Below are positions 10,983 through 47,707 of a DNA stretch of 64,000 bases, in pieces. Position numbers and translations under genes: made by a program. The notes under the pieces were generated by a model that ran no database searches, had not been told where the DNA came from, and saw nothing but the letters and a program-made list of their open reading frames with translations. Source of the DNA: Clostridia bacterium (lineage in GTDB: Bacteria; Bacillota; Clostridia; CAKSNL01; HGM11501); the NCBI GenBank assembly GCA_017411325.1, contig JAFQQJ010000013.1, forward strand, positions 15,295 to 79,294, read 5' to 3'. Positions within the stretch are counted from its first letter, which is position 1; each line of letters begins with the position of its first letter.

Positions 10983-11864
10983 ATGGAACTTAAAGTAACA
11001 AACGCACAGAGGGCTGAAATATTAACTCAGGCACTTCCTTATATTCAGCAGTATTACGGCAAAATCGTTGTGGTTAAATACGGCGGAAATGCAATGATAA
11101 ACGAAGAGCTTAAACAGCAGGTTATGGAAGATATCGTTCTTCTTCACTTAATCGGCGTAAAGGTTGTTGTGGTTCACGGCGGCGGCCCCGAAATAAGCGA
11201 TATGCTTAAGAAAATCGGCAAAGAATCTGTATTTCTGGACGGTCTTCGTGTAACAGACAAGGAAACCGTTGACATTGTGCAGATGATTTTAGCCGGAAAA
11301 ATCAACAAAAATCTTGTAAGCCTTATTGAACAGAAGGGCGGCAAGGCTATGGGTATATCCGGTATTGACGGCCATATGATTGAGGCGGAAATGAAGGATG
11401 AGCGCTACGGCTATGTTGGAACAATAACAAAGGTTAATACCGAGCCTGTATGCGATTTAATAGAAAAGGGCTATATTCCCATCGTTTCCACCGTAGGATG
11501 CGATATGGAGGGTAACACCTACAACATAAACGCAGATACAGCGGCGGCATTCATCGCAGGGGCACTTAAGGCTGAACGACTTATCTCAATGACGGATATA
11601 ACAGGCGTTCTCCGCGACAAGGACGATCCTGATTCTGTTATCCACTGTATGGATATAGCGGAGGCGAAAACCTTATTTGCCGACGGAATAATCTGCGGCG
11701 GGATGATTCCCAAAGTTGAATGCTGTATCGAGGCAATCAATATGGGTGTTGAAAGAGTTACTATTCTTGACGGAAGAGTGCCCCACGCACTGCTTCTGGA
11801 AACTCTTACGGACGAAGGTGCGGGAACAATGGTTATCCGCGATAAAAGTGAGGCAGGATTATGA
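10983..11864 (+). CDS. argB: acetylglutamate kinase
   Basis: 293 aa. Motifs VVKYGGNAM and VVVHGGGPEI. Confidence 0.95.
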   Translation: MELKVTNAQRAEILTQALPYIQQYYGKIVVVKYGGNAMINEELKQQVMEDIVLLHLIGVKVVVVHGGGPEISDMLKKIGKESVFLDGLRVTDKETVDIVQMILAGKINKNLVSLIEQKGGKAMGISGIDGHMIEAEMKDERYGYVGTITKVNTEPVCDLIEKGYIPIVSTVGCDMEGNTYNINADTAAAFIAGALKAERLISMTDITGVLRDKDDPDSVIHCMDIAEAKTLFADGIICGGMIPKVECCIEAINMGVERVTILDGRVPHALLLETLTDEGAGTMVIRDKSEAGL

Positions 11865-13015
11865 GTATTATAAATGACGACAGTAAGTATATTGCAAATA
11901 CCTATGCACGTTTCCCTCTTGCGATAGTAAAGGGAAAAGGTGCTTTGGCATACGATGAAGCGGGTAAAGAGTATATAGACCTCGGAAGCGGAATTGCGGT
12001 AAATGCCTTCGGGTATTCCGATGACGAGTGGGTTAAGGCAGTAACGGGCCAGCTTTCAAAGGTTCAGCATACTTCAAATCTTTACTATACCGAGCCTTGC
12101 ACCCGTCTTGCTAAAATGCTCTGCGAAAAAACAGGAGCTAAAAAGGTGTTTTTCGGAAACTCCGGTGCTGAGGCAAATGAATGTGCCATAAAGGTTGCGA
12201 GAAAATATGCCGAGGATAAGGGGATAGAGGGGGCGAAAATCATAACCCTCAACAACAGCTTCCACGGAAGAACTTTAGCGACACTTGCCGCAACAGGACA
12301 GGATGTTTTCCATAAGTCGTTTTTGCCCCTTCCCGACGGCTTCTTACATATAGATGCAGGGGATATTGATGCATTTAAGGCACTTGCCGAAAAGGAAAAT
12401 GTTGCCGCAATTATGATGGAAATGGTACAGGGAGAAGGGGGCGTTATGCCTCTTACCGAGGAATTTGTAAAAGAAGTTTGCCGTATTGCAAAGGAAAAGG
12501 ACATCCTCGTAATGGTTGACGAGGTGCAGACCGGTAACGGAAGATGCGGTTCACTTTATGCATATATGAATTACGGAATCACACCCGATGTTGTAACCAC
12601 CGCAAAGGGACTTGGCGGCGGTCTCCCCATCGGATGCTGTATGATGTTTGAAAAAACCGAAAATGTGTTAAAAAGCGGCGATCACGGCTCAACCTTCGGC
12701 GGAAATCCCATTGCAGCGGCAGGTGCTGTAAGCATAATTGAAAGAATTGACGATAAGCTTTTATCCGAAGTAAAGGAAAAATCCGAAATGATTTTTTCAT
12801 CTCTTACGGGAGCGAAAGGCGTTAAGAGCGTTTCAGGCCAGGGACTTATGATCGGCATAGAAACCGAAAAGGATGCAGGTGAAGTAATTAAAGAGTGTAT
12901 GGGAAAAGGCGTTCTTGTAATAAAGGCAAAAAACAAGGTAAGACTTCTTCCTCCGCTTAACATAAAGAAGGAAGAGCTTAAGAAAGCTCTGGATATAATA
13001 AAGTCCTGTCTTTAA
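11861..13015 (+). CDS. argD: acetylornithine aminotransferase
   Basis: 384 aa, class III aminotransferase. Motifs DEVQTGNGRCG and PDVVTTAKGLGGG. 4-nt overlap with argB. Confidence 0.9.
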   Translation: MSIINDDSKYIANTYARFPLAIVKGKGALAYDEAGKEYIDLGSGIAVNAFGYSDDEWVKAVTGQLSKVQHTSNLYYTEPCTRLAKMLCEKTGAKKVFFGNSGAEANECAIKVARKYAEDKGIEGAKIITLNNSFHGRTLATLAATGQDVFHKSFLPLPDGFLHIDAGDIDAFKALAEKENVAAIMMEMVQGEGGVMPLTEEFVKEVCRIAKEKDILVMVDEVQTGNGRCGSLYAYMNYGITPDVVTTAKGLGGGLPIGCCMMFEKTENVLKSGDHGSTFGGNPIAAAGAVSIIERIDDKLLSEVKEKSEMIFSSLTGAKGVKSVSGQGLMIGIETEKDAGEVIKECMGKGVLVIKAKNKVRLLPPLNIKKEELKKALDIIKSCL

Positions 13016-13022
13016 TCAGAAT

Positions 13023-13066
13023 AAAACAAGACATTTATTTAAATAAATGTCTTGTTTTTATTTTTA
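13023..13066 (+). terminator. intrinsic terminator (perfect 18-bp palindrome)
   Basis: AAAACAAGACATTTATTT/AAATAAATGTCTTGTTTT followed by a T-run. Confidence 0.75.
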
Positions 13067-13114
13067 AGTTGTGCTATAATATCTAAGATTGAGTTATAAA
13101 GTGAGGCAGTTTTT

Positions 13115-14584
13115 ATGAATAGGAAAATTGGCTTTGACAACGAAAAGTACATAAAGATGCAGTCTGAACACATCGGAAAGAGAGTGACGGAGTTCGGCGA
13201 CAAGCTTTACCTGGAGCTTGGAGGCAAGCTTTTTGACGACCATCACGCATCCCGCGTGCTTCCCGGTTTTCAGCCTGACAGTAAAATGAAGATGCTTATG
13301 CACTTATCGGACAAGCTTGAAATTGTTATCGTTATAAGTGCCATCGACATTGTTAAAAATAAGGTGAGAAGCGACTATAACATAACCTATGACCTTGATA
13401 CAATCCGCCTTATCGAAGCCTTCAAAGGCCTCGGTCTTATGGTGGGAAGCGTTGTTATAACTCAGTATAGCGGTCAGGCTGCGTCAGATGTTTTCAAGAA
13501 AAGGCTTGAAAATATGGGAATGAAGGTATTCCTCCACTATCCAATAGAAGGCTATCCTTCTAATGTGGAATTAATCGTGAGCGACGAGGGCTACGGCAAG
13601 AACGATTATATCGAAACCGAGCGGCCCATCGTTGTTGTAACCGCACCGGGCCCCGGAAGCGGAAAGATGGCAACCTGCTTATCTCAGCTCTATCACGAAA
13701 ACAAGAGGGGGGTAAAGGCGGGCTACGCCAAGTTTGAAACCTTCCCCATATGGAACCTTCCCTTAAAGCATCACGTAAATCTGGCGTATGAAGCTGCAAC
13801 GGTGGATTTGAATGACGTCAATATGATTGATCCGTTCCACCTTGAGGCATATGGGGAGACCGCCGTAAACTACAACAGAGACATTGAAATTTTTCCTGTC
13901 TTAAATGCTATGTTTGAAAAGATAATGGGGACAAGTCCCTATAAATCTCCTACGGATATGGGAGTTAATATGGCGGGAAACTGTATAATCGACGACGAGG
14001 TTGTCCGTCAGGCATCAAAGGAAGAAATTGTAAGAAGATACTACCAGGTATTAAAGGATAAAACCAACGGAAAATGCGACATTGACGTGATAAGGAAAAT
14101 GGAGCTTATCATGAAGCAGGCAGAGGTAAGCACCCTCGACCGTAAGGTTGCCGAGGCGGCACTTAAAAAAGCGGAAATTTCCAAAGGCCCTGTGTGTGCA
14201 ATTCAGCTTCCCGACGGCAAGATAGTAACGGGAAAAACCTCCTCGCTTCTTGGAGCATCCAGTGCGGCACTGCTTAATGCACTTAAGGAAATAACGGGAA
14301 TCGAGGATGATGTTCATCTTATATCACCGGAGGTTATTGAGCCTCTTCAGAACCTTAAAATAAATCATCTGGGAAGTAAAAACCCGAGAATACATATGGA
14401 TGAAACATTGGTTGCTCTTTCAATCTGTGCGGCAAGTGATCCTTTAGCTAAAAAGGCACTCGAAGGCATAAGTGAGCTTAAGGGAGCAGAGGCACACTCA
14501 ACCGTAATTTTATCACAGGTAGATGAAAATATGTTCAAAAAGCTTGGTATAAATTTAACATGCGAAGCAACATATAATAAATAA
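13115..14584 (+). CDS. DUF1846 (UPF0371) family protein
   Basis: 489 aa. The N-terminus GFDNEKYIKMQSEHI...YLELGGKLFDDHHASRVLPGF is characteristic of this uncharacterised family. Confidence 0.8.
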   Translation: MNRKIGFDNEKYIKMQSEHIGKRVTEFGDKLYLELGGKLFDDHHASRVLPGFQPDSKMKMLMHLSDKLEIVIVISAIDIVKNKVRSDYNITYDLDTIRLIEAFKGLGLMVGSVVITQYSGQAASDVFKKRLENMGMKVFLHYPIEGYPSNVELIVSDEGYGKNDYIETERPIVVVTAPGPGSGKMATCLSQLYHENKRGVKAGYAKFETFPIWNLPLKHHVNLAYEAATVDLNDVNMIDPFHLEAYGETAVNYNRDIEIFPVLNAMFEKIMGTSPYKSPTDMGVNMAGNCIIDDEVVRQASKEEIVRRYYQVLKDKTNGKCDIDVIRKMELIMKQAEVSTLDRKVAEAALKKAEISKGPVCAIQLPDGKIVTGKTSSLLGASSAALLNALKEITGIEDDVHLISPEVIEPLQNLKINHLGSKNPRIHMDETLVALSICAASDPLAKKALEGISELKGAEAHSTVILSQVDENMFKKLGINLTCEATYNK

Positions 14585-14717
14585 TTGTAAGGCGGCTGTA
14601 AACTTATGTTTACGGCTGTCTTTTATTTTGCACTTGCAATTCTTTACAAAATCTGTAATAATAAATCCGGATGCCGGACAGAATAATACAGCCTTAATAA
14701 AAATAAGGAGGTTTATT

Positions 14718-15548
14718 ATGGATTTTTTATCTGAATTCAGAGAAAGGCTTGTAAATGATGAGAAGGCAAAACTTACTGTGGAAAAATATGTAAGAGACTG
14801 CAGGGCGTTTTTAGCATGGATTTCGGAAAGCGGGAGAACGCTGGATAAAGAGGCGGTGCTTTGCTATAAGGAGCTTATTTCAAAGAAACACAAAACCGCC
14901 GGAGCGAATTCCATACTCTCATCTCTGAATGCATATTTTTCATATATAGGGAGAGATGAGCTTAAGGTAAAAATATTAAAGAGACAAATGACTAACTTCA
15001 GAAACGAAGAGAAAGAACTTACGAGAGACGAGTATGCAAGGCTGCTTAATGCCGCAAAGGAGCGTAAAAACAGAAAGCTTTATTATATTATGATGACTGT
15101 GTGCCGCACAGGGATAAGAATTTCTGAGCTTTCTTATATTACGGTGGAAGCGGCAAGAAAAAAGGAGGCGGTTATAGGAAATAAGGGAAAGATAAGAATT
15201 ATCCTGCTTCCTGAAAAGCTTTGCAGAGAGCTTCTTTGTTATGCTTCTGAAGAAAAAATAAAAAGCGGCCCCCTGTTCGTAACAAAAAACGGGAATCCGC
15301 TTGACCGTTCAAATATATGGAAAATGATGAAATCTCTTTGCGAAAGTGCGAATGTGGAAAAGGAAAAGGTTTTTCCGCATAATTTAAGGCATCTTTTTGC
15401 GGTAACCTTTTACAGTGTTCATAAAGATATTGTGCATCTGGCAGATATTTTAGGACATTCTACGGTTTCCACCACAAGAATTTATACACTGGAAAGCAGC
15501 CGGGCACATAGAAAACAGATGGAACAGCTATCAGGTCTTTTGCTTTAA
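14718..15548 (+). CDS. tyrosine site-specific recombinase (phage-integrase/Xer superfamily)
   Basis: ATG at 14718 behind RBS AAGGAGG; the ORF-track start 14628 is upstream read-in. Catalytic pattern RTGIRISEL, HNLRHLFA, LGHSTVSTTRIYT. Ends 10 bp before the left inverted repeat. Confidence 0.9.
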   Translation: MDFLSEFRERLVNDEKAKLTVEKYVRDCRAFLAWISESGRTLDKEAVLCYKELISKKHKTAGANSILSSLNAYFSYIGRDELKVKILKRQMTNFRNEEKELTRDEYARLLNAAKERKNRKLYYIMMTVCRTGIRISELSYITVEAARKKEAVIGNKGKIRIILLPEKLCRELLCYASEEKIKSGPLFVTKNGNPLDRSNIWKMMKSLCESANVEKEKVFPHNLRHLFAVTFYSVHKDIVHLADILGHSTVSTTRIYTLESSRAHRKQMEQLSGLLL

Positions 15549-15557
15549 AAATAAAAA

Positions 15558-15583
15558 TACCACATAATGCCGATTATGTGGTA
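15558..15583. repeat. left recombinase core site (IRL)
   Basis: TACCACATAAT-GCCG-ATTATGTGGTA: 11-bp inverted arms around an asymmetric 4-bp centre. Exact reverse complement of 15787-15812. Confidence 0.9.
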
Positions 15584-15646
15584 ATCTCTCCTTCTCATCT
15601 GCCATACGGATTTTATAAAAAGAAATTTTTTCCAAAAAATGTGCGC

Positions 15647-15682
15647 AAAAAAAAGACCGATGTAAAATTCTGCCTCATCGGT
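15647..15682 (-). terminator. intrinsic terminator active only on the minus strand in the present orientation
   Basis: Minus-strand sense: ACCGATG-13 nt loop-CATCGGT followed by T8 (the A8 run 15647-15654 on the plus strand). Confidence 0.55.
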
Positions 15683-15737
15683 TGCTTCATTATGTCTGAT
15701 TTTTGCAAAGTTTTATTTTTCCATTGATAAAAAACTA

Positions 15738-15766
15738 TTGACAAACCGCTTCCCTGATGTTATAAT
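15738..15766 (+). promoter_or_regulatory. consensus sigmaA promoter inside the invertible segment
   Basis: TTGACA (15738-15743), 17-bp spacer, TATAAT (15761-15766), pointing at the 15849 CDS. Confidence 0.75.
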
Positions 15767-15786
15767 TTCTATGTATTAATTCTTTT

Positions 15787-15812
15787 TACCACATAATCGG
15801 CATTATGTGGTA
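15787..15812. repeat. right recombinase core site (IRR)
   Basis: TACCACATAAT-CGGC-ATTATGTGGTA. Confidence 0.9.
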
Positions 15813-15848
15813 GAAAATTATGAGTGGTTTTTTGAAAGGAAGGATTTT

Positions 15849-18800
15849 ATGAAAAAGGAGTTTTTGCACATTTTCAGCTTTGTTATGATTGCAATTTTTA
15901 CATTCTCCTGTATCGGGGCTGTAAGTGCGGAAGAAACCTTCGATATTCCCGTAATTGAGGAAGTATCGGAAGAGGAGCTTGCAGAGGTTCTCCCCGAAGA
16001 GGAAGCTGAACTGTACGAGGAAACAGCTGAGGTTACAAAAGAAGAAGCAGAAGCGGCACTTTATGACGGGGAAAACTTCAGTGCTTATTATGCAAGCTTT
16101 GAGGATGCTGTTGCTGCTGTTACAAGCGGCACTTTTGATGGAATGCCTACAATAAAGCTTCTTAAAGACGTGTTATTGGATTCTAACTCTGATACTCGTA
16201 ATTATAAAATTGTTACAGGTAAAGAATTTGTAGTTGACGGTACAAATCCGAACGGAGGCACTTTTAAGATTGAAGACGGAAATCTTGACTGGAATACAGA
16301 CAAAACTACAACTATAAAGACATACAGTATACATATGGATGGGACTGGCACAAAACTTATTGCAAAGAATGTTACTTTTACCAGAAGTTTTCACAAGTCA
16401 TATGCGTTTTTTCATATAGGTGCTCATGCTACTCTTGAACTTTCCGACAATGCCAAAATCGGAGGAACAGCTGAAAGCTATCTCTCAGGCGGTAACGGAA
16501 GTGCTGTATTCATAGAAGCTTATGGTGATAGTCAAGTAGTCCCTGGATTTATAATGAACTCCGATACAGCAGTAATTGAGTACTGCAAAGGTTCAGGTTA
16601 CGGTACGGTAGGTGTATTCGCCGGTAAAAACGTTCCTGAATTCAGAAAAGGTACAATCAGGAACTGTCAGGATTCCGGCGGTGCGATCGGTATAAGCGGT
16701 TCAAAGGATATCATAATAGAAGAAACTTTCAGAATTGAAAACTGTGCTGTCGGCATAGGTGGAAAAGCAGATTCTGTAGTAAAGATCAATACACCTTTCA
16801 CTATTACAGGATGCACAAAAGGCATTACACTTGAATCCGGAGCAACTCTTGACATTAACGCAAATGTCAAGATATCCGGAGGTACTTACTGCATATATGC
16901 TGCAGACAAATCTATAATAAACTTAAACAGCCCGATAACAATGAGCGGAGCTGCAACCACAGGCTTTGCCCTTGCGGGAGAGGATATTATAACATTTGGT
17001 GCAAATTTTTCCGGAGATATTTATGCGATGGTAGGGTATACATCAGGCGGCAAAACATATGATGGTATATGGATCGGCCATCTTGCAGACGGAGTTGAAA
17101 ACTTAAACGGAAATGTATATTACGGGAAGAGCAAAAGCGGTCATAAAGGCGTATTCCACGAAAGCCTTATGGGAAGCGGAAAAATAACGGTTGGCGAAAA
17201 AGAGTATTCTCTTAAAAAATCGTTTGCCGATACTGACAACTATGACATTCCGGCTAAGGGTGTTGTGTTTGACTATCCGTTATATATAAGAACGGGAACA
17301 GAGGATACCGGGTTTAAGAGAGTGGCGTTTGAAACTTTCAAAGAGGCATACAATCTGGGAAGTACAGGGGAAACTATATATCTTCTTAAGGATTTGAATG
17401 ATAATGACGGTATTTCCTTGAATGCTACAACAACTCCTACGGGTGGAGAAGCTGTACTTTCGCATTTTAATTTTTTCAAAAGCTTAAATATTAATGGTAA
17501 CGGTCATAAAATCACCAAGGAAAACAGCGTTGCAAAATATCTTTTTGCGGTGTATTCAAATGCACATTTTAATGTGAAAAATATTGTTTACGATGGTAGT
17601 GGATTGGGAGCGTTTGCTTATATTAACGCACACGGTGGTGGTGGAACAATAAGCGTTGACAACTGCCTTGTATATAATGGTTTAGGTGGAAACGCAGGAG
17701 CATTTTATACTCTTATAACAGATTCTGCAAGCACATCTGCAGCTGTGATAAATATTAAAGATACAACCATTGCATCCTGTAGTGCACCGAACGGAGGAGC
17801 GATATATGCGTATTATAGATCTACGATAAATCTCGAAAACGTAGAAATTACTGACTGCTCGACTGTAAGTGCAACTACAGGCAATGGAGGAGCTGTATAT
17901 ATTGCAAGCGGCTCCAAGCTTAACCTAAAAGGCAGAATCAATATTTCAGACAACAAGAAAGGAACATCAGAAAATAATATTTATCTTCCGGGAACCAATC
18001 AGATAACAATTACCGGAGATATTTCAGAAGGCTCTTTAATTGGTCTTTCGATGGCACAGTCCGGAGCAACATTTGGAACAGTAGCAGATGGTGTTGATGT
18101 TGATAAAACGATGTTCTTTGCCGACGGGGCAGTTATAAGAAATTATACAAGTGTCGGGGTATATACAGAAAGAAAAATTAATGCAGCTTTCTATCCCGAG
18201 ACAGTGGGTGATGGTAAGCTTAATGAGACAGTCGTTATTGATGTGAATGATATTAACGAAAAAAAGAACTCCAGAACAAATGAGCTTGTTCTTCACTGGC
18301 CCTGGCTTCTTGAAAGAGGTGGCAAGTTATACGGCTATGCAGATTTTCTTACAGCTTATTCATGGGCAAATGCTTCAGATGCGGTCTTATACTGTCAAAA
18401 GGATATTACAATTGAACATTTGTGGGGAAAAGCAATAGATGATAAGAATGATTTTTCAAGCATCTCAAAAATGACTGAGTTTACTATGTACGGAGAAACA
18501 TCGAACTATGCTCACACCGATATGCTGCAATATCTTACACTTGACGGAAATGGTCATATTATTGATGTGGATAAAAAGGATGGTAATGCTGTATTTTCTC
18601 TTCAGTGGGGGAATAGAAATCTCACGCTTAATAACTTTATCTATGACGGACAGAAGCCCTTTGCAGTGGTTCATAAATCAGCAGCAGTAGGAACAGAAAC
18701 TATAACTGTGAATAACAGCTATATGACGACTGTTGACGACTATCCGCTGTTTACTGTAGGTAAGGGCGGTACAATTAATATTATTGACAGCACACTTGAA

Positions 18801-19514
18801 GGGAAGATTCAGATGGAGGGCGTTGCTGAAGATACGGCAAACTCAAAACCTGAATACAGAAGCAAATTTAATCTTTACGGCAACGCCTCTGTTAAAGGCC
18901 TAGGAATTAACATCGGCAATACTTATGTTGATGGCTGCATCGATAAAACTTACACGGGAAATTCTGTTGTGGGCGGAGATGTTTCGCAACTTAAAGCAGG
19001 CGAAGGCTTTACTTCCTTAGAGTCTGTAAGTAGCATTACTAAAGCAGGTTCAAACGGCGAAACATTTGCATATTATGACGAAGCAAATAAAAAGTTTGCG
19101 TGGACTATGGCACCTGAACTTACACTTACGACAGATTCCGGTAAGTATAGTGACGAACTAGGAACAATAAGATTTCTGACAACATTTAATTCTGTTGACT
19201 CTGATGCTGTAGCAAGCTATGGAACCTATGCGGTGGGAGCAAGCAGCTTTGATGAAAATGCACAGTGGCAGTCAAATCAGTTCAGAGAATTTGACAAGAC
19301 ACCGGGAGCTGATAAGGTATATTATGTCGATGCTGTAAAAATTCCCGCGGAGCATTTTGACACAGAAATTGCGGCACTCAGCTTTGTAAGGATTAAAGGA
19401 ATTAAAACACCGATTTATTACGATTTCAATTTGGCAAGTGTAAATAAAAATGACACAGAAACAGGCGATGGAGTATTAAAGAACTTAGGCGATCCTGCAT
19501 ATACCGAAGCATGA
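15849..19514 (+). CDS. large secreted right-handed beta-helix / Pmp-repeat-like surface protein (putative adhesin)
   Basis: ATG 15849 behind RBS AAGGAAGG, with signal peptide MKKEFLHIFSFVMIAIFTFSCIGAVSA. Glu-rich linker. GGAI(Y)-type repeats (NGGAIYAYY, GNGGAVYIASG). Three about 400-aa modules each open with F-x-x-A...LLKD. No LPXTG or other anchor recognised. Confidence 0.8.
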   Translation: MKKEFLHIFSFVMIAIFTFSCIGAVSAEETFDIPVIEEVSEEELAEVLPEEEAELYEETAEVTKEEAEAALYDGENFSAYYASFEDAVAAVTSGTFDGMPTIKLLKDVLLDSNSDTRNYKIVTGKEFVVDGTNPNGGTFKIEDGNLDWNTDKTTTIKTYSIHMDGTGTKLIAKNVTFTRSFHKSYAFFHIGAHATLELSDNAKIGGTAESYLSGGNGSAVFIEAYGDSQVVPGFIMNSDTAVIEYCKGSGYGTVGVFAGKNVPEFRKGTIRNCQDSGGAIGISGSKDIIIEETFRIENCAVGIGGKADSVVKINTPFTITGCTKGITLESGATLDINANVKISGGTYCIYAADKSIINLNSPITMSGAATTGFALAGEDIITFGANFSGDIYAMVGYTSGGKTYDGIWIGHLADGVENLNGNVYYGKSKSGHKGVFHESLMGSGKITVGEKEYSLKKSFADTDNYDIPAKGVVFDYPLYIRTGTEDTGFKRVAFETFKEAYNLGSTGETIYLLKDLNDNDGISLNATTTPTGGEAVLSHFNFFKSLNINGNGHKITKENSVAKYLFAVYSNAHFNVKNIVYDGSGLGAFAYINAHGGGGTISVDNCLVYNGLGGNAGAFYTLITDSASTSAAVINIKDTTIASCSAPNGGAIYAYYRSTINLENVEITDCSTVSATTGNGGAVYIASGSKLNLKGRINISDNKKGTSENNIYLPGTNQITITGDISEGSLIGLSMAQSGATFGTVADGVDVDKTMFFADGAVIRNYTSVGVYTERKINAAFYPETVGDGKLNETVVIDVNDINEKKNSRTNELVLHWPWLLERGGKLYGYADFLTAYSWANASDAVLYCQKDITIEHLWGKAIDDKNDFSSISKMTEFTMYGETSNYAHTDMLQYLTLDGNGHIIDVDKKDGNAVFSLQWGNRNLTLNNFIYDGQKPFAVVHKSAAVGTETITVNNSYMTTVDDYPLFTVGKGGTINIIDSTLEGKIQMEGVAEDTANSKPEYRSKFNLYGNASVKGLGINIGNTYVDGCIDKTYTGNSVVGGDVSQLKAGEGFTSLESVSSITKAGSNGETFAYYDEANKKFAWTMAPELTLTTDSGKYSDELGTIRFLTTFNSVDSDAVASYGTYAVGASSFDENAQWQSNQFREFDKTPGADKVYYVDAVKIPAEHFDTEIAALSFVRIKGIKTPIYYDFNLASVNKNDTETGDGVLKNLGDPAYTEA

Positions 19515-19523
19515 GGAGGGATA

Positions 19524-19739
19524 ATGATGAACGAGAAAATAAATATTACGCAGGAAAATCCCTTTTCCGAGAACGAGAAAGTAAACAAGGAAAAAAAGAA
19601 AAAGGTGTATGAAAGTCCCGAAATTACGGTGATAGAAATCGAAACAAAGGATGTAATAAACGCCAGCACTTTAATAGGCTTCGATGCTACAGGCGAAAAT
19701 CTTCTGGGCTACGGTCAGATAGAGATTGACTTGAAATAA
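19524..19739 (+). CDS. small hypothetical protein (71 aa)
   Basis: Strong RBS GAGGAGGG overlaps the stop of the upstream gene, and the ATG is 9 nt after that stop. Lys/Glu-rich N-half, no Cys, no TM. No family recognised. Confidence 0.5.
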   Translation: MMNEKINITQENPFSENEKVNKEKKKKVYESPEITVIEIETKDVINASTLIGFDATGENLLGYGQIEIDLK

Positions 19740-19853
19740 TTAATAATCGCGGAAATCGGACCGCATAAAATATGTCTGAAATGCAGAAACGGTGCAACAG
19801 ACAATGTTGTAAACACAACTGCTTTCTGCTTTTTAGAGAACCACTTCTTAGCG

Positions 19854-19879
19854 AAAAGACGGCTAGTGCCGTCTTTTTG
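19854..19879 (+). terminator. intrinsic terminator
   Basis: AGACGGC-TAGT-GCCGTCT followed by TTTT. Confidence 0.7.
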
Positions 19880-19927
19880 CATTTTAAATTTTTGCAGCCG
19901 GAAATCTGAACTCATCCGCCTTTTGGT

Positions 19928-20006
19928 GTCATTCTGAGTCCGAAGGACGAAGAATCCCGTGCAAAAAAGATTCTTCACTCCGCCTGACGGCTCTGCTCAG
20001 AATGAC
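19928..20006. repeat. palindromic intergenic repeat, family 2 (compact hairpin copy)
   Basis: GTCATTCTGAGTCCGAAGGACGAAGAATC (19928-19956) pairs with GATTCTTCACTCCGCCTGACGGCTCTGCTCAGAATGAC (19969-20006). Confidence 0.65.
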
Positions 20007-20145
20007 AGGTGGAAATATAAATAAAACAGAAAGTTTTAGAAAAATAACAATTTCCCCTTGTTTTAATTTCTTTTTAGTGATATAATATTTAATTAATAAT
20101 ATAATCGGAGAAATTGTGTCTTTTTGTGAAAGGAAAGAGCAAATT

Positions 20146-20679
20146 ATGAAGATAAAAGTTGATAAGCTCACATATAAAGAGTTTACTGAATATGCTGATT
20201 CCACCGTGGCAAAGCCCATAAAAATGACTCTGGCGTTTTTCATCGGCGTGGCAATAATTTTAATCATTATCGCAATGAGCAAGCCTTCATTTGAAGGTGC
20301 TGTTACACCGCTTTTCTGGTGCGTGGGAATTCTTGCATTCCTTTTAATTGTATCAAATGCAAGCATAAATACTGCATTTAAAAAATCGGGGCTTGCATCA
20401 ACCAATTGCAGCTACACCTTTATGGAAGACGGTATGAAAATCGCAATGGGAAAATTAAAGGGCGACCTTGAGTGGAAGTATGTCAAATACGTAAAAGAAA
20501 CCAAAAATCTCTGGATTATGAGAGTGCCCAACAGCCAGTTTATAATCCCAAAAAGATGTATGAACGAAGATGAATGGGAAAGCTTTATAAACACATATAT
20601 TCCCGAAGATAAAATAAAGCGGATGAAGTATAAGAGAAGTACCCCTGAAAGGACGAAGGACGATGACAGTGAAGACTGA
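20146..20679 (+). CDS. YcxB-like membrane protein
   Basis: ATG 20146 behind AAAGGAAAGAG. Two TM helices, then a C-terminal region ...NLWIMRVPNSQFIIPKRCMNEDEWESF typical of the YcxB-like domain. Confidence 0.5.
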   Translation: MKIKVDKLTYKEFTEYADSTVAKPIKMTLAFFIGVAIILIIIAMSKPSFEGAVTPLFWCVGILAFLLIVSNASINTAFKKSGLASTNCSYTFMEDGMKIAMGKLKGDLEWKYVKYVKETKNLWIMRVPNSQFIIPKRCMNEDEWESFINTYIPEDKIKRMKYKRSTPERTKDDDSED

Positions 20680-22045
20680 TGAAAAAGAAATTTTAAGACA
20701 GAAGGGCTTTGCCGAAAAGGTTAAAAATATAATCGGTGAAGGAAAAAAATATCTTTTAATAACACTTGGCTGTCAGCAAAACGAGAGCGACTCTGAAAAG
20801 CTTCACGGGATGCTTAGTGAAATGGGCTACACCGAAACAGAGCTGATAGATGAAGCCGACCTTATTTTATACAACACCTGTGCGGTAAGGGAAAATGCGG
20901 AGAAAAAGCTTTTCGGAAGAATCGGTGCATTAAAGCCCTATAAAGAAAAAAATCCCGACCTTATAATAGGCGTGTGCGGTTGTATGACACAGCAAAAGGG
21001 GATGGACGAGCGTTTCCGTCGCTACTATAAATATGTTGATATGGTTTTCGGAACCTACAGCTTATATGCCCTTCCCGAAATTTTATATAAGGTAATAGAA
21101 GACAGAGCCCAGATACGCGATATAAGAGATATTGACGGCGAGGTTACGGAGGGAATCCCGATTAAAAGACAGAGCAATGTAAAGGCGTACCTTTCCGTTA
21201 TGTACGGCTGCAACAACTTCTGCAGCTACTGCGTTGTCCCATATGTAAGGGGAAGGGAGCGAAGCCGTGAGTATAAGGATGTATTGGATGAAGCGAAGTC
21301 AATTGCGTCCTCCGGCATAAAGGAAATTATGCTTCTGGGACAGAATGTAAACTCCTACAACGGCGGCTTAAGCTTTGCCGAGCTTGTAGCGAAGGTCAGC
21401 GAAATTGACGGGATTGAGCGAATCCGCTTTATGTCATCTCACCCCAAGGACATCAGTAGCGAGCTTATCGACGTTATGGCAGAGCGTAAAAATGTGTGCA
21501 ATCAGCTCCATCTTCCCGTACAGTCAGGAAGCAACCGTATACTAAAGATTATGAACCGTCGCTATACGGTTGAAAAATATATGGGGATAATTGACGAGGT
21601 TAAACGTAAAATTCCCGATGTTACCCTTACAACGGACATAATCGTTGGCTTCCCCGGCGAAACCAACGAGGATTTTTATAAGACTATGGAGCTTTTGAAA
21701 GCTGTGCGCTATGACAGCATTTTCTCATTTATATACTCAAAGCGAAAAGGCACGCCTGCCGCAGTTATGGAGGATTGCCTGACAGAGGAAGAAAAACACA
21801 TTAATTTTGATAAGATGTTAAAGCTTCAGAACGATATTTCTCTTGAAAAGAATAAGGCTATGATTGGCTCTGTTCAGTCTGTTTTGGTGGAAGGCGAAAG
21901 CAAAACGGACAAGCTGCGTCAGTGCGGAAGGTCGGAAGGCGGAAAATTAGTGCATTTTGCTTCCGATAAGGATTTGACCGGAGAAATAGTTAAAGTGAAA
22001 ATTACGGATGTCAACACCTGGACGCTTTCAGGTGATATGATATAA
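20663..22045 (+). CDS. miaB: tRNA-2-methylthio-N6-dimethylallyladenosine synthase
   Basis: 460 aa with the radical-SAM motif CNNFCSYCVVPYVRG. UPF0004 N-domain and TRAM C-domain pattern. Confidence 0.93.
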   Translation: MTVKTDEKEILRQKGFAEKVKNIIGEGKKYLLITLGCQQNESDSEKLHGMLSEMGYTETELIDEADLILYNTCAVRENAEKKLFGRIGALKPYKEKNPDLIIGVCGCMTQQKGMDERFRRYYKYVDMVFGTYSLYALPEILYKVIEDRAQIRDIRDIDGEVTEGIPIKRQSNVKAYLSVMYGCNNFCSYCVVPYVRGRERSREYKDVLDEAKSIASSGIKEIMLLGQNVNSYNGGLSFAELVAKVSEIDGIERIRFMSSHPKDISSELIDVMAERKNVCNQLHLPVQSGSNRILKIMNRRYTVEKYMGIIDEVKRKIPDVTLTTDIIVGFPGETNEDFYKTMELLKAVRYDSIFSFIYSKRKGTPAAVMEDCLTEEEKHINFDKMLKLQNDISLEKNKAMIGSVQSVLVEGESKTDKLRQCGRSEGGKLVHFASDKDLTGEIVKVKITDVNTWTLSGDMI

Positions 22046-22060
22046 GAAAGGCTTGATTAA

Positions 22061-24667
22061 ATGATCGAGGACAGAAGCAAATTATCTGCCATGATGAGGC
22101 AGTATCTTGCTACAAAGGACGAATATCCCGATGCGATACTTATGTACCGTGTGGGAGACTTTTATGAAATGTTTTTTGACGATGCGAAAACCGCGTCCGC
22201 GGCACTTGACCTGGTTTTAACAGGGAAGGACTGCGGTCTTAGTGAGCGTGCACCCATGTGCGGTGTGCCCTTTCATGCGGCTGATAACTATATTTCCCGT
22301 CTTGTTTCAAAGGGCTTCAAGGTTGCCATCTGTGAGCAGGTTGAAGACCCGAAAGAGGCAAAAGGACTTGTTAAGCGTGACGTAATAAGGGTGGTAACAC
22401 CGGGAACCATAACAGACGAAGCGGTTTTAGACTCCCGACCCACAAACTATATGTGTGCCATAAATAAGTCGGAGGAAGTAACTGCTCTTGCCATTGCCGA
22501 TGTTTCAACCGGTGAGGTTTTGGTAACGGAATTTACAAAGGATGAATATAATTCTGAGCTTATAAGCGAGCTTGACCGTTTTTCGCCCGTTGAAATATTG
22601 CTGGGGCAGGGTGCAGTTTCCGATTCGGAATTAGTTTCCTACATAAACGATAAGACAAAGGCACTTTGCTTCTCCTGCGACGAAAGCTATTTCGACTACG
22701 ACAATGCCCTTGCAATAATCGGTGAGCAGTTCGGAAAAGAAGGGGACAAGCTTAAGGGTAAAAAGGAACTTTCCGGTGCTCTTTCTGCACTTTTATCCTA
22801 CATTATGGAAACCCAGAAGGTTGAGCTTTCCCATATGAAAGAAATTGAATTTTTCACCACCAACCGCTATATGGAAGTGGGAAGTGTGGCTCAGAAAAAT
22901 TTGGAGCTTGTTGAAAATATGCAGGACAAGACAAAGCGAGGCACACTTTTGAGCATCCTTGATAAAACCTGCACTACAATGGGAAGAAGAACCGTTAAAA
23001 GCTGGATTTTAAGACCTTTAATTGATACGGTGAAAATTAAAAACAGACTTGATGCCGTTGGTGAAGCATCAGAAAAGCTTCAGGTAAGAACCAACCTTCG
23101 TGATTTAATGGCATCGGTAAACGACATTGAAAGAATTGTAAGCCGTGTTTCCCTTGGAACGGTTAACCCAAGAGACTTGGTTGCACTTAAAACATCCCTT
23201 ATGATGCTTCCTGCCATAAAGGAAGAAAGCGGAAAATTCACTTCCGACTTTATGAAGAAGCAGTGCACGGATATTGAAATCTTAAATGATTTGACCATGC
23301 TCATCGATATGGCGATAGTAGACAAGGATACCCCCATAACAGTAAGAGAAGGAAAAATCATAAAGGAAGGCTTTTCAGAGGAAATAGACTACTTGAATAA
23401 GCTTATGTCTGACAGCAAGGGAATCCTTGCGGGCATCGAGGCAAGGGAAAGGGAAAGAACGGGAATTCCCAAGCTTAAGGTGGGCTATAACAAGGTGTTC
23501 GGATACTACATCGAGGTTTCAAACGTACATAAGGACAAGGTTCCCGAAGACTATATAAGAAAGCAGACTCTTACAAACGGAGAAAGATATATAACAGAAG
23601 AGCTTAAAGAGGTCGAAAAGGATGTTTTAAGTGCTTCTGAAAAGGTTATCCGCCTTGAATACGAGGCATTTATGAAGGTGGTTTCGGCCGTAAAGGAAAA
23701 AATCGGAAGCATACAGAAAACCTCCCACGCCATCGGCGTAATGGACGTTATATGCTCCTTTGCCCACGTGGCGGTTAAAAATTCCTACTGTATGCCGATA
23801 GTTGATGCGTCGGACAATCTGGAAATAAAGGACGGCCGCCATCCCGTGGTTGAGCAGATAAACGATAAGGAGCTTTTTGTTCCCAACGATACAAATCTTT
23901 CGGGCAAGGGCGATTCAATGGCAATAATCACAGGGCCCAATATGGCAGGTAAATCCACATATATGCGCCAGGTGGCATTAATCTCGCTTATGGCGCAGAT
24001 TGGCTCTTTCGTTCCCGCAACATTCTGCCACGTCGGTGTGGTAGACAAGATATTTACCCGTGTCGGTGCTTCCGATGATTTATCCTCGGGAAGAAGTACC
24101 TATATGGTTGAAATGAGCGAGGTTGCTGAAATCGTAAACAATGCAACGAAAAAGAGCCTTATTATCTTAGACGAAATAGGCAGAGGCACAAGCACCTTTG
24201 ACGGACTTTCAATGGCATGGTCAATTGTTGAATACTGTGCGGAAAAAATAAAGGCAAGAACACTTTTCGCCACCCATTATCACGAGCTTACGGAGCTTGA
24301 AAGCACGCTTCCCGGTGTAAAGAACTACTGCATTGCAGTTAAAAAGAGGGGAGACGACATCATTTTCCTCCGCAAGATAATAAGAGGCGGAGCGGACGAA
24401 AGCTACGGTATTGAGGTTGCCCGTCTTGCAGGCATAAAGGAAAGTATAATAAAACGTGCAAAGGAAATTCTTGCCAAGGTGGAAAACGAAAACCCCAGAG
24501 AAAGAAAAACGGCTATAAAGGCGGAAGCGGACACTCAGCTTGATATGTCAGGAATGGTTAAGGACACCATCGTTGACCGCCTTCGTATGATTGATATAAC
24601 AACAATTTCGCCCCTGGAGGCACTTAACATATTAAACGAACTTAAAAACAAGGCTGACGAAGCATAA
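22061..24667 (+). CDS. mutS: DNA mismatch repair protein MutS
   Basis: 868 aa. Motifs MMRQYL, GDFYE, and Walker A GPNMAGKSTYMRQ. Confidence 0.97.
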   Translation: MIEDRSKLSAMMRQYLATKDEYPDAILMYRVGDFYEMFFDDAKTASAALDLVLTGKDCGLSERAPMCGVPFHAADNYISRLVSKGFKVAICEQVEDPKEAKGLVKRDVIRVVTPGTITDEAVLDSRPTNYMCAINKSEEVTALAIADVSTGEVLVTEFTKDEYNSELISELDRFSPVEILLGQGAVSDSELVSYINDKTKALCFSCDESYFDYDNALAIIGEQFGKEGDKLKGKKELSGALSALLSYIMETQKVELSHMKEIEFFTTNRYMEVGSVAQKNLELVENMQDKTKRGTLLSILDKTCTTMGRRTVKSWILRPLIDTVKIKNRLDAVGEASEKLQVRTNLRDLMASVNDIERIVSRVSLGTVNPRDLVALKTSLMMLPAIKEESGKFTSDFMKKQCTDIEILNDLTMLIDMAIVDKDTPITVREGKIIKEGFSEEIDYLNKLMSDSKGILAGIEARERERTGIPKLKVGYNKVFGYYIEVSNVHKDKVPEDYIRKQTLTNGERYITEELKEVEKDVLSASEKVIRLEYEAFMKVVSAVKEKIGSIQKTSHAIGVMDVICSFAHVAVKNSYCMPIVDASDNLEIKDGRHPVVEQINDKELFVPNDTNLSGKGDSMAIITGPNMAGKSTYMRQVALISLMAQIGSFVPATFCHVGVVDKIFTRVGASDDLSSGRSTYMVEMSEVAEIVNNATKKSLIILDEIGRGTSTFDGLSMAWSIVEYCAEKIKARTLFATHYHELTELESTLPGVKNYCIAVKKRGDDIIFLRKIIRGGADESYGIEVARLAGIKESIIKRAKEILAKVENENPRERKTAIKAEADTQLDMSGMVKDTIVDRLRMIDITTISPLEALNILNELKNKADEA

Positions 24668-46992: not shown

Positions 46993-47059
46993 AAAAGAGA
47001 TTAGATGCGTATGTGTATTATACAGTCTTTATAAAGTTTGATATACAAGGGACAAAAAA

Positions 47060-47201
47060 GCCTTCCCCTTGAGGGGAAGGTGGGTGTAGGCAAAATCAGG
47101 CGGATTTTGCTGAAACTCGGATGAGGTGGAAATGAATAACGATTGCTTTGCAATCTACACCTCATCAGTCACTTCGTGACAGCTTCCCCTCAAGGGGAAG
47201 C
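47060..47201. repeat. palindromic intergenic repeat, family 1 (well-preserved copy)
   Basis: Terminal hairpins GCCTTCCCCTTGAGGGGAAGGTGGG (47060-47084) and GCTTCCCCTCAAGGGGAAGC (47182-47201). Internal pair CGGATGAGGTG (47118-47128) / CACCTCATC (47158-47166). Two small inner hairpins (GCAAAATC/GATTTTGC and GATTGC/GCAATC). Confidence 0.7.
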
Positions 47202-47221
47202 CTTTGAAAGGAAGTGCAAAT

Positions 47222-47707
47222 TTGAAGAGAAAAATAATTATCCTTTTGTGTGTAATGATTGGAATTGTTATGCTTGTTTCGTTAATAGACGAAATTAGGT
47301 ATCCAATTTCCCTTAAAATTAAATCAAATGATGTGGCAACTGCGAAAATAATATTTTATGGTGACGGAATAGACAAAGAGATAACCGAACAAAAAGATGT
47401 GAAAAAATTAGTTAGAGCATTAAATAAGCTTCGCTTTAAAGAAAGCGAAGATATGAGCCATTTGTCTCCACGTTCTGGCATTAGAATTGTAGAATTGTAT
47501 AACGAAAAAGGTGAGTGTACAGAATGTGTACAATTTTATGATTGGGCATACAGGGGTGGCGAGTATAAAGGCGAAGAAAGAAAAGATGGAGATTATTTAT
47601 CTGTAAAAAAAGGGTTGCGATTGGGTAATTTTTATATTTTATGCGACAAGTTGTGTGATGATCCCTTTGATATGGGTATATACAAAATATTTTATTACTT
47701 GCAATAA
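47222..47707 (+). CDS. cassette ORF 1: small membrane-anchored hypothetical protein
   Basis: TTG 47222 sits 7 nt after AAAGGAAG and gives MKRKIIILLCVMIGIVMLVSL... (signal-anchor). The ORF track starts it at TTG 47204. No family recognised. AT-rich. Confidence 0.55.
   Translation: MKRKIIILLCVMIGIVMLVSLIDEIRYPISLKIKSNDVATAKIIFYGDGIDKEITEQKDVKKLVRALNKLRFKESEDMSHLSPRSGIRIVELYNEKGECTECVQFYDWAYRGGEYKGEERKDGDYLSVKKGLRLGNFYILCDKLCDDPFDMGIYKIFYYLQ

Follow-up and report, generated by a model that had tools for sequence, protein, structure and literature searches.

A probable promoter inverton with lox-like sites and an adjacent tyrosine recombinase, an apparent member of a large switch family in gut Clostridia

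Phase variation through promoter inversion has been well worked out in Bacteroides, Escherichia coli and Clostridioides difficile, but commensal Clostridia, the dominant group in the gut, have barely been studied in this respect. In the E. coli fim system, the inverted repeats (IRs) measure 9 bp, are accompanied by flanking half-sites, and need IHF and Lrp. The cwpV and flagellar switches of C. difficile depend on the tyrosine recombinase RecV and comprise roughly 150–230 bp upstream of surface or cell-wall genes, with a terminator acting in the OFF state of cwpV (PMC2784873; PMC5903667). A recent survey of hCom2 (PMC11892184, Microbiome 2025) describes an inverton group 139 (invertase group 35) of 33 invertons, 32 of them in Clostridia, from 17 strains. 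According to the survey, the IR motif was previously unpublished, nearly all members adjoin a tyrosine recombinase, and flipping is supported by reads; the example listed there from Clostridium sp. D5 (3525576-3525601-3525807-3525832) implies 26-bp IRs about 205 bp apart. Here, we describe a locus of this type in a Clostridia bacterium (assembly GCA_017411325.1, contig JAFQQJ010000013.1, positions 15,295 to 79,294), the whole 64,000-nucleotide stretch analyzed being referred to as the window. The locus consists of a gene for a Xer-like tyrosine recombinase, two inverted recombination sites enclosing a promoter, and a downstream gene for a large secreted protein, hereafter the cargo. Its kind, the tyrosine-recombinase promoter inverton, is known. 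We put the probability that this locus is such an inverton, working as a phase-variation switch, at about 0.85, and sequence comparison indicates that it is one member of a very large, under-described family in Clostridia, not a one-off.

The segment between the two sites is found naturally inverted, exactly at the sites. A relative with about 94% identical flanks and the same IRs (NCBI GCA_045545475.1, locus L127) aligns with the window in forward orientation over 11001-15584 (93.7%), in reverse over 15558-15812 (98.0%), and forward again over 15786-16002 (97.7%) and 18991-24000 (93.7%). Because the segment lies reversed between forward-aligned flanks, the window represents the ON and L127 the OFF orientation. 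A preliminary description of the window had predicted that a flip would turn the promoter back toward the recombinase gene, and L127 carries precisely this arrangement. The whole flipping stretch, IR arms included, measures 255 bp (15558-15812), and the junction string of the flipped orientation would consist of the left inverted repeat (IRL) followed by the reverse complement of the promoter end (...ATTATGTGGTAAAAAGAATTAATACATAG...). L124, a contig from the same organism as the window, stops precisely at the distal IR. A scan of Joint Genome Institute (JGI) metagenomes with a locus-specific 28-mer returned no match.

The two sites (Table 1) have the anatomy of partner sites for a tyrosine recombinase. 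Their arms are 27 nt each, 100% complementary and 201 nt apart; the preliminary description had recognized them as exact reverse complements, counting 26 nt per arm and 203 nt between them. Each arm is an 11+4+11 palindrome, centered on GCCG at the left and CGGC at the right, and folds into a stable hairpin. A search of the 64 kb for ACCACATAAT-N4-ATTATGTGGT with up to three mismatches recovered only these two sites, and 100 dinucleotide-preserving shuffles yielded none; Rfam had no match in the window. The same pattern was used to scan one genome per bacterial species, giving at least 120 contigs, and all family counts below refer to the matches listed. With two mismatches allowed per arm, 88 listed loci had at least two sites, and in 88/88 the 4-nt centers of the partners are exact reverse complements. 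These centers fall into 47 classes, none of them palindromic, and vary freely between loci, with a median site spacing of 227 bp; the inner arm positions CACATAAT/ATTATGTG are essentially invariant. Real partner sites would be expected to show this pattern, because their crossover regions have to agree with each other and be asymmetric. The lox/FRT-type reading proposed at the outset is thus backed by family-wide covariation.

The association of site and recombinase holds in both directions. Of the 120 listed loci, about 95 have a homolog of the window recombinase (42–69% identical) whose end lies 0–50 bp from a site. Conversely, four proteins picked by protein similarity alone (P0002, P0013, P0090, and P0112) each have a site pair with reverse-complementary centers and a consensus promoter immediately downstream. 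In the window, the stop codon of the recombinase gene ends 9 nt before the left site; the preliminary description had given a gap of 10 bp. Alignment to XerA and XerD shows the catalytic residues R134, K158, H221, R224, H247, and Y256 all intact, and the nearest solved structures are archaeal XerA proteins and XerD. Two described classes were considered and rejected. The Xer chromosome-dimer resolvases (XerA/C/D/S/H) do not fit, as the protein scores below the equivalog cut-offs (best XerA, 134.7 bits against a cut-off of 220; XerD, 123.1 bits against 329.6) and the sites are inverted pairs, at several loci per genome and beside promoters, rather than a single dif-type site per replicon. Nor is the protein a FimB/FimE-type invertase, scoring 33.7 bits against NCBIfam NF007370 (cut-off 221) and 24.5 bits against NF007371 (cut-off 222). 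The recombinase protein family comprises at least 8000 clusters at about 55–60% identity.

Carriers of the site, found in at least 120 species-representative genomes, are nearly all gut Clostridia (Lachnospiraceae, Oscillospiraceae, and unclassified Clostridia) from ruminants, rabbit, chicken, mouse, and human. Within this set, inversion recurs. For example, the flanks of loci L049 and L072 are 99.7% and 100% identical, while their 249-bp inner segments agree at 25% in the same sense and at 99.6% as reverse complements; in each of the two locus pairs whose flanks agree at 97% or more, one member is flipped relative to the other. Furthermore, contigs end within 60 bp of a site in 14 of the 120 listed cases. 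Even in the isolate C. symbiosum ATCC 14940, a cultured type strain (L063, 1-303 and 6401-6473), a scaffold starts inside one site and an N-run abuts the recombinase-side site. We read such breaks as a consequence of both orientations being present in the sample. The family cargo includes proteins with Listeria-Bacteroides repeats, BspA-LRR and collagen-like proteins, Wzy, CpsB, NusG, and GGDEF/EAL proteins, all of them classes typical of phase-variable functions, as well as TetR regulators and ResIII helicases.

Several listed loci depart from the simple layout. Three or four sites occur at L039 (6606-6981), L047, L050, L052, L058, L068, L084, L092, L106, L112, L115, L129, and L130-L133, the extra sites lying in tandem, 30–55 bp from a partner and with the same center; nested alternative inversions or small deletions could result. 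At L079 (508-1578), the recombinase gene lies between sites spaced 1023 bp apart and would therefore itself invert. L037, L070, L093, and L105 are orphan switches, i.e., site pairs with reverse-complementary centers and no recombinase gene nearby, presumably inverted in trans through a recombinase gene in another part of the genome. The exact site is also present in a few gut metagenome-assembled genomes (MAGs) of Gastranaerophilales, non-photosynthetic Cyanobacteriota (L020, L066, and L073), one of these loci having an adjacent recombinase of 56% identity; this suggests cross-phylum transfer or contig mis-binning.

The invertible segment of the window contains a predicted sigma-70 promoter that is the sole 12/12 match between 14400 and 20000 and is aimed at the open reading frame (ORF) starting at 15849, just as the preliminary description had it. 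From the end of its -10 element, the distance is 19 nt to the right IR arm and 21 nt to the 24-nt site core. For the family, promoters were given one point per matching hexamer position, up to 12, with 0.5 added for a spacer of 17 nt and another 0.5 for a TG extension. By this measure, 61 of 78 segments contain a promoter with a score of 11 or more; with the loci oriented on the recombinase gene, 46 of these face the recombinase and 15 the cargo. The end of the -10 element is mostly about 20–38 nt from the site that the promoter faces, and because this distance is alike in both orientations, the cassette flips as a unit.

Two further elements may insulate the switch. The preliminary description placed an intrinsic terminator on the opposite strand at 15647-15682. 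The element is present, with a 7-bp stem, a 13-nt loop and a T8 run on the minus strand, and its fold is weak (-10.4 kcal/mol, z = -1.46); it escaped the standard terminator scan, its loop being longer than that scan allows. It is in fact the local form of a conserved dyad, GACCAATG-N13-25-CATTGGTC, present in about 35 of 61 segments. Compensatory variants of the dyad occur (e.g., GACCGATG/CATCGGTC and GACTAATG/CATTAGTC), and the flanks often lengthen the stem. Across 33 aligned copies, in which the 8-bp core had been pre-selected for complementarity and the flanks had not, 66% of cells are paired, compared with 34–45% in slid controls; each of the 23 pairs has at least one sequence in which both sides are changed, and none of 500 shuffles attains the values observed. 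L127, being in the OFF state, has on its plus strand GACCGATG..CATCGGTC, an 8-bp stem without mismatch, and then T8; the element stands between the recombinase gene and the cargo, matching the terminator originally proposed.

The other element, missed in the preliminary description, combines the left IR with an A-tract. Outside the recombinase-side site, the window reads AAAAATAAAAA, so that the minus strand presents an 11-bp hairpin followed by UUUUUAUUUU, a terminator-like fold of -16 kcal/mol (z = -5.4). Such an A-tract accompanies the recombinase-side site in 57 of 78 loci, compared with 8–20 of 78 at the other three junctions. As predicted from its sequence, this element would stop antisense transcripts of the flipped promoter from running into the recombinase gene. 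The right site is transcribed as a hairpin in the 5'-untranslated region (5'-UTR), and since no U-run stands behind it in the window, ON transcripts should pass through.

Taken together, these elements suggest the following mechanism. The recombinase, which would be the catalyst, would bind as dimers at the two lox-like core sites, each composed of 10-11-bp palindromic arms around an asymmetric 4-nt center. As the centers are in opposite orientation, strand exchange gives inversion, here of the approximately 230 bp between the sites. In the ON state, the promoter would transcribe through the right-site hairpin into the cargo gene. In the OFF state, as in L127, it would point toward the recombinase gene and its transcripts should terminate at the left-site hairpin and U-run, and the internal dyad with its T8, now co-directional between the recombinase gene and the cargo, should block read-through. 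Switching would be frequent enough for phase variation.

Table 1. Coordinates of features at the switch locus, in window numbering
Feature	Position	Strand	Details
Left (recombinase-side) recombination site	15558..15584	.	TACCACATAAT-GCCG-ATTATGTGGTA; family consensus from 216 sites
Right (cargo-side) recombination site	15786..15812	.	TACCACATAAT-CGGC-ATTATGTGGTA
Invertible segment	15585..15785	.	Promoter toward cargo (ON); reversed in L127 at 98% identity
Predicted sigma-70 promoter, TTGACA-17-TATAAT, TG extension	15738..15766	+	12/12 match
Conserved internal dyad, GACCGATG..CATCGGTT	15647..15683	-	A8 on plus strand, i.e., T8 on minus strand
Left-IR hairpin (11-bp stem, 4-nt loop) followed by TTTTTATTTT; terminator-like	15548..15583	-	Terminator scan
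Tyrosine recombinase gene, 276 aa, Xer-like	14718..15548	+	Pfam PF00589 Phage_integrase, E = 2.4e-24
Candidate recombinase promoter, TTGCAA-17-AATAAT, TG-extended	14634..14662	+	Consensus scan, 9/12; weak
Cargo gene, 1221-aa secreted protein	15849..19514	+	Signal-peptide-like N-terminus, acidic linker, beta-helix-like blocks, conserved C-terminal module of ~170 aa
Cargo ribosome-binding site (RBS), AGGAAGG	15837-15843	+	Sequence
Intrinsic terminator, probably ending the cargo transcript	19851..19880	+	13-bp stem and T-run, terminator scan

Several observations weigh against a working phase-variation switch of this design. The promoter and both terminators are sequence predictions, and the internal hairpin of the window is energetically weak. 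Among 35 loci, the T-run of the dyad shares the strand of the promoter in 14, occupies the other strand in 7, and appears on both in 2; because this strand varies, the dual promoter-plus-terminator logic of the preliminary description holds at the window locus, where the OFF sequence of L127 agrees with it, and is not a family-wide rule. Across the family, the dyad resembles a fixed OFF terminator less than it does an insulator of a general or bidirectional kind, or possibly a dyad bound by protein. The ON orientation is shared by all four other assemblies from the organism of the window, and four samples carrying the homolog P0090 are all OFF, so switching may be slow or strongly biased. The evidence at the window locus comes from assemblies, and coexistence of both orientations in one population would be a prediction. 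Moreover, two relatives with about 80–82% flank identity, L125 (4815-5000) and L126 (4904-5000), have neither recombinase nor IRs in the slot corresponding to window 14585-15848. In their place is a fixed TTGACA-17-TATAAT promoter, the counterpart of the window promoter in its ON orientation. These are natural switch-less (locked-ON) versions or the state before switch insertion, which makes the switch dispensable. The uniform orientations and the fixed promoters of L125 and L126 would all suit a rare evolutionary rearrangement, a relic, or a very slow switch, with expression effectively fixed in each lineage. We consider this unlikely, given that both locus pairs with closely matching flanks are flipped, that the active site and perfect repeats are maintained across at least 120 species-representative genomes, and that contigs, including those of an isolate, break at the sites. 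Group 139, which is probably the same family, also flips at read level in culture according to the hCom2 survey.

The comparison with L125 and L126 bears on a different explanation as well. As switch and recombinase are together present in the window and L127 and absent from L125 and L126, the module has been gained or lost as a unit at one syntenic slot, and the recombinase is integrase- or Xer-like; both facts could be expected of a mobile or integrative element whose sites are of attachment type and whose recombinase mainly moves or excises DNA. Yet the sites are always inverted, giving inversion instead of excision, nearly every locus has its recombinase gene outside the repeats, and the promoter keeps a fixed distance from one site. 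In addition, a search of 2.9 million viral contigs found no site, which argues against a phage attachment (att) site. We therefore regard this explanation as very improbable. Still less credible is the proposal that the palindromes are merely hairpin terminators or repetitive extragenic palindromic (REP)-like elements with a recombinase as coincidental neighbor. A stable hairpin does form at each site, and one scores as a terminator, but hairpin loops need not be mutual reverse complements, as they are in 88/88 loci, nor would 20 arm positions be expected to stay nearly invariant across bacterial families. This proposal is already contradicted by the two-way association with the recombinase and by the inverted state of the intervening segment. 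The promoter inverton thus remains the preferred reading. A broader suggestion, which we offer tentatively and hold to be possible, is that this is the main self-contained promoter-flipping cassette of gut Clostridia, with the site center as a free 'address' that makes switches heterospecific, with insulators of its own in the form of the recombinase-side IR as a one-way terminator and of the internal dyad terminator, and gained or lost whole before pre-existing genes. Switches in one genome may then be unable to recombine with each other, like engineered lox variants. Genomes with two loci (n = 8) bear on whether centers prevent such cross-recombination: the centers differ in six and are the same in two (L003/L056 and L086/L109). 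One of the same-center pairs looks like a recent duplication.

The cargo was described beforehand as a giant beta-helix surface protein or adhesin. The beta-helix part of this description has moderate support. An AlphaFold model of residues 71-1221 has a mean predicted local distance difference test (pLDDT) score of 58.9 and contains three blocks of short regular strands; as a whole it gave no significant Foldseek match. When the central block (residues 480-800) was modeled alone, it reached a predicted template-modeling (pTM) score of 0.72, and its top 50 Foldseek matches were all right-handed beta-helix proteins, led by a PL3 pectate lyase (probability 0.99, TM 0.61; none with E <= 0.001). 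A relative, P0126, passes the Pfam Beta_helix cut-off. The surface or adhesin part did not find such support: the N-terminus is signal-peptide-like, a search for LPXTG, SLH, or other anchor motifs found none, and an adhesin role is a guess. Sequence comparison with Pfam, NCBIfam, and PDB gave no match. Three homologs were recovered by a word-seeded search of 5.8 billion proteins and 44 by an exhaustive phmmer search of 1.84 billion representatives with a single-sequence query, most of which match only the last ~170 residues. This C-terminal module (18999-19511), for which Pfam has no family, is found in about 30 otherwise different proteins of 500–1350 aa, always at the C-terminus, and may be a domain for anchoring or for secretion.

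Between the window and L127, cargo residues 1-50 are 100% identical, residues 51-1050 18–56%, and residues 1051-1221 72–94%, the divergent central part corresponding to 16002-18991 in the window and 5238-8389 in L127. Surface proteins that evolve under diversifying selection typically form mosaics of this sort, and either such selection or allelic replacement is suggested here. The cargo is a near-orphan, hypervariable secreted protein. All cargo homologs occupy one syntenic slot, argJ-argB-argD-DUF1846-[switch]-cargo-YcxB-MiaB-MutS, and the candidate recombinase promoter sits just behind the terminator of the DUF1846 gene (14589-14622). A small ORF directly behind the cargo (19524-19739, 71 aa, no family match) has a counterpart of similar size (50–70 aa) at the same place in L125-L127. 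At the place expected for the distal IR, L125 and L126 carry a small hairpin unrelated to it. At the far end of the invertible segment of the window, 15608-15634 resembles the region of the cargo RBS and start (15842-15868) at 21/27 positions, a likeness that could arise by chance in AT-rich DNA or date from the origin of the cassette. Elsewhere in the window there is a second IR pair (47057-47082 and 47180-47205; 26 nt, 92% complementary, 97 nt apart), whose arms are likewise palindromic (GCCTTCCCCTTGAGGGGAAGG and GCTTCCCCTCAAGGGGAAGC) and which lies in the leader upstream of ORF 47204-47707. With no Rfam match to this pair and no recombinase nearby, it could represent the paired hairpins of a regulatory leader, not a switch.

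The site definition, the cognate recombinase family with its thousands of members, and the conserved layout would together allow invertons to be annotated from sequence only in Clostridia genomes and metagenomes. Cultured carriers are available in C. symbiosum ATCC 14940, Lacrimispora sp. DFI.3.58, Faecalicatena faecalis AGMB00832, and Clostridium sp. MCC353. If the system is a simple Cre-like one, the compact pair of recombinase and site could serve as a genetic tool in Gram-positive anaerobes. The hypervariable, secreted, beta-helix-like cargo also fits immune or phage pressure at the cell surface.

Among described systems, the window family is probably that of hCom2 inverton group 139. The survey places group 139 in intergenic regions of Clostridia, with ~26-bp IRs, about 205–230 bp between them and an adjacent tyrosine recombinase, all of which the window shares; as the comparison is by geometry, taxon, and neighborhood rather than by IR sequence, we infer the identity of the two (PMC11892184). 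Its account of group 139 gives no site anatomy, center covariation, terminators, or cargo spectrum. A full-text literature search for the site string returned unrelated primers only, and concept searches found no characterization of this switch family beyond the hCom2 survey. No earlier account appears to exist of the anatomy of the site region, which combines a free asymmetric 4-nt center with an internal dyad and an IR that would also serve as a terminator.

With E. coli fimS, the window shares a short invertible promoter segment and tyrosine recombinase gene(s) adjacent upstream, an arrangement that in fimS gives ON/OFF control of a surface structure; unlike FimB/FimE, the window recombinase is not of Fim type and is encoded by a single gene, and its sites are lox-like palindromes of 24–26 bp. 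The distinction from the C. difficile switches is one of architecture. The cwpV switch does not include the promoter, and RecV acts on several unrelated IRs from a distant gene, whereas in the window the invertible segment contains the promoter, the recombinase gene adjoins it, and the site shows high conservation. C. difficile Cdi7, also considered, has an adjacent recombinase and spans an ORF, and was set aside as a different kind of element. The promoter invertons of Bacteroides, flipped by Tsr tyrosine or Mpi serine recombinases, are similar in occurring in gut commensals, in many copies per genome, at capsule and surface genes, including NusG/UpxY-led loci, and with family-specific IR motifs. 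They differ in phylum, in the IR motifs themselves, in their Bacteroides-type promoter as opposed to TTGACA/TATAAT, and, for Mpi, in the use of a serine recombinase. Finally, Cre/loxP and FLP/FRT resemble the window system in their palindromic arms around a short asymmetric center that sets directionality and in their small recombinase without an arm-binding domain. Unlike the 8-bp spacer of loxP, however, the center here has four freely variable positions, and the natural role of the system is promoter inversion.

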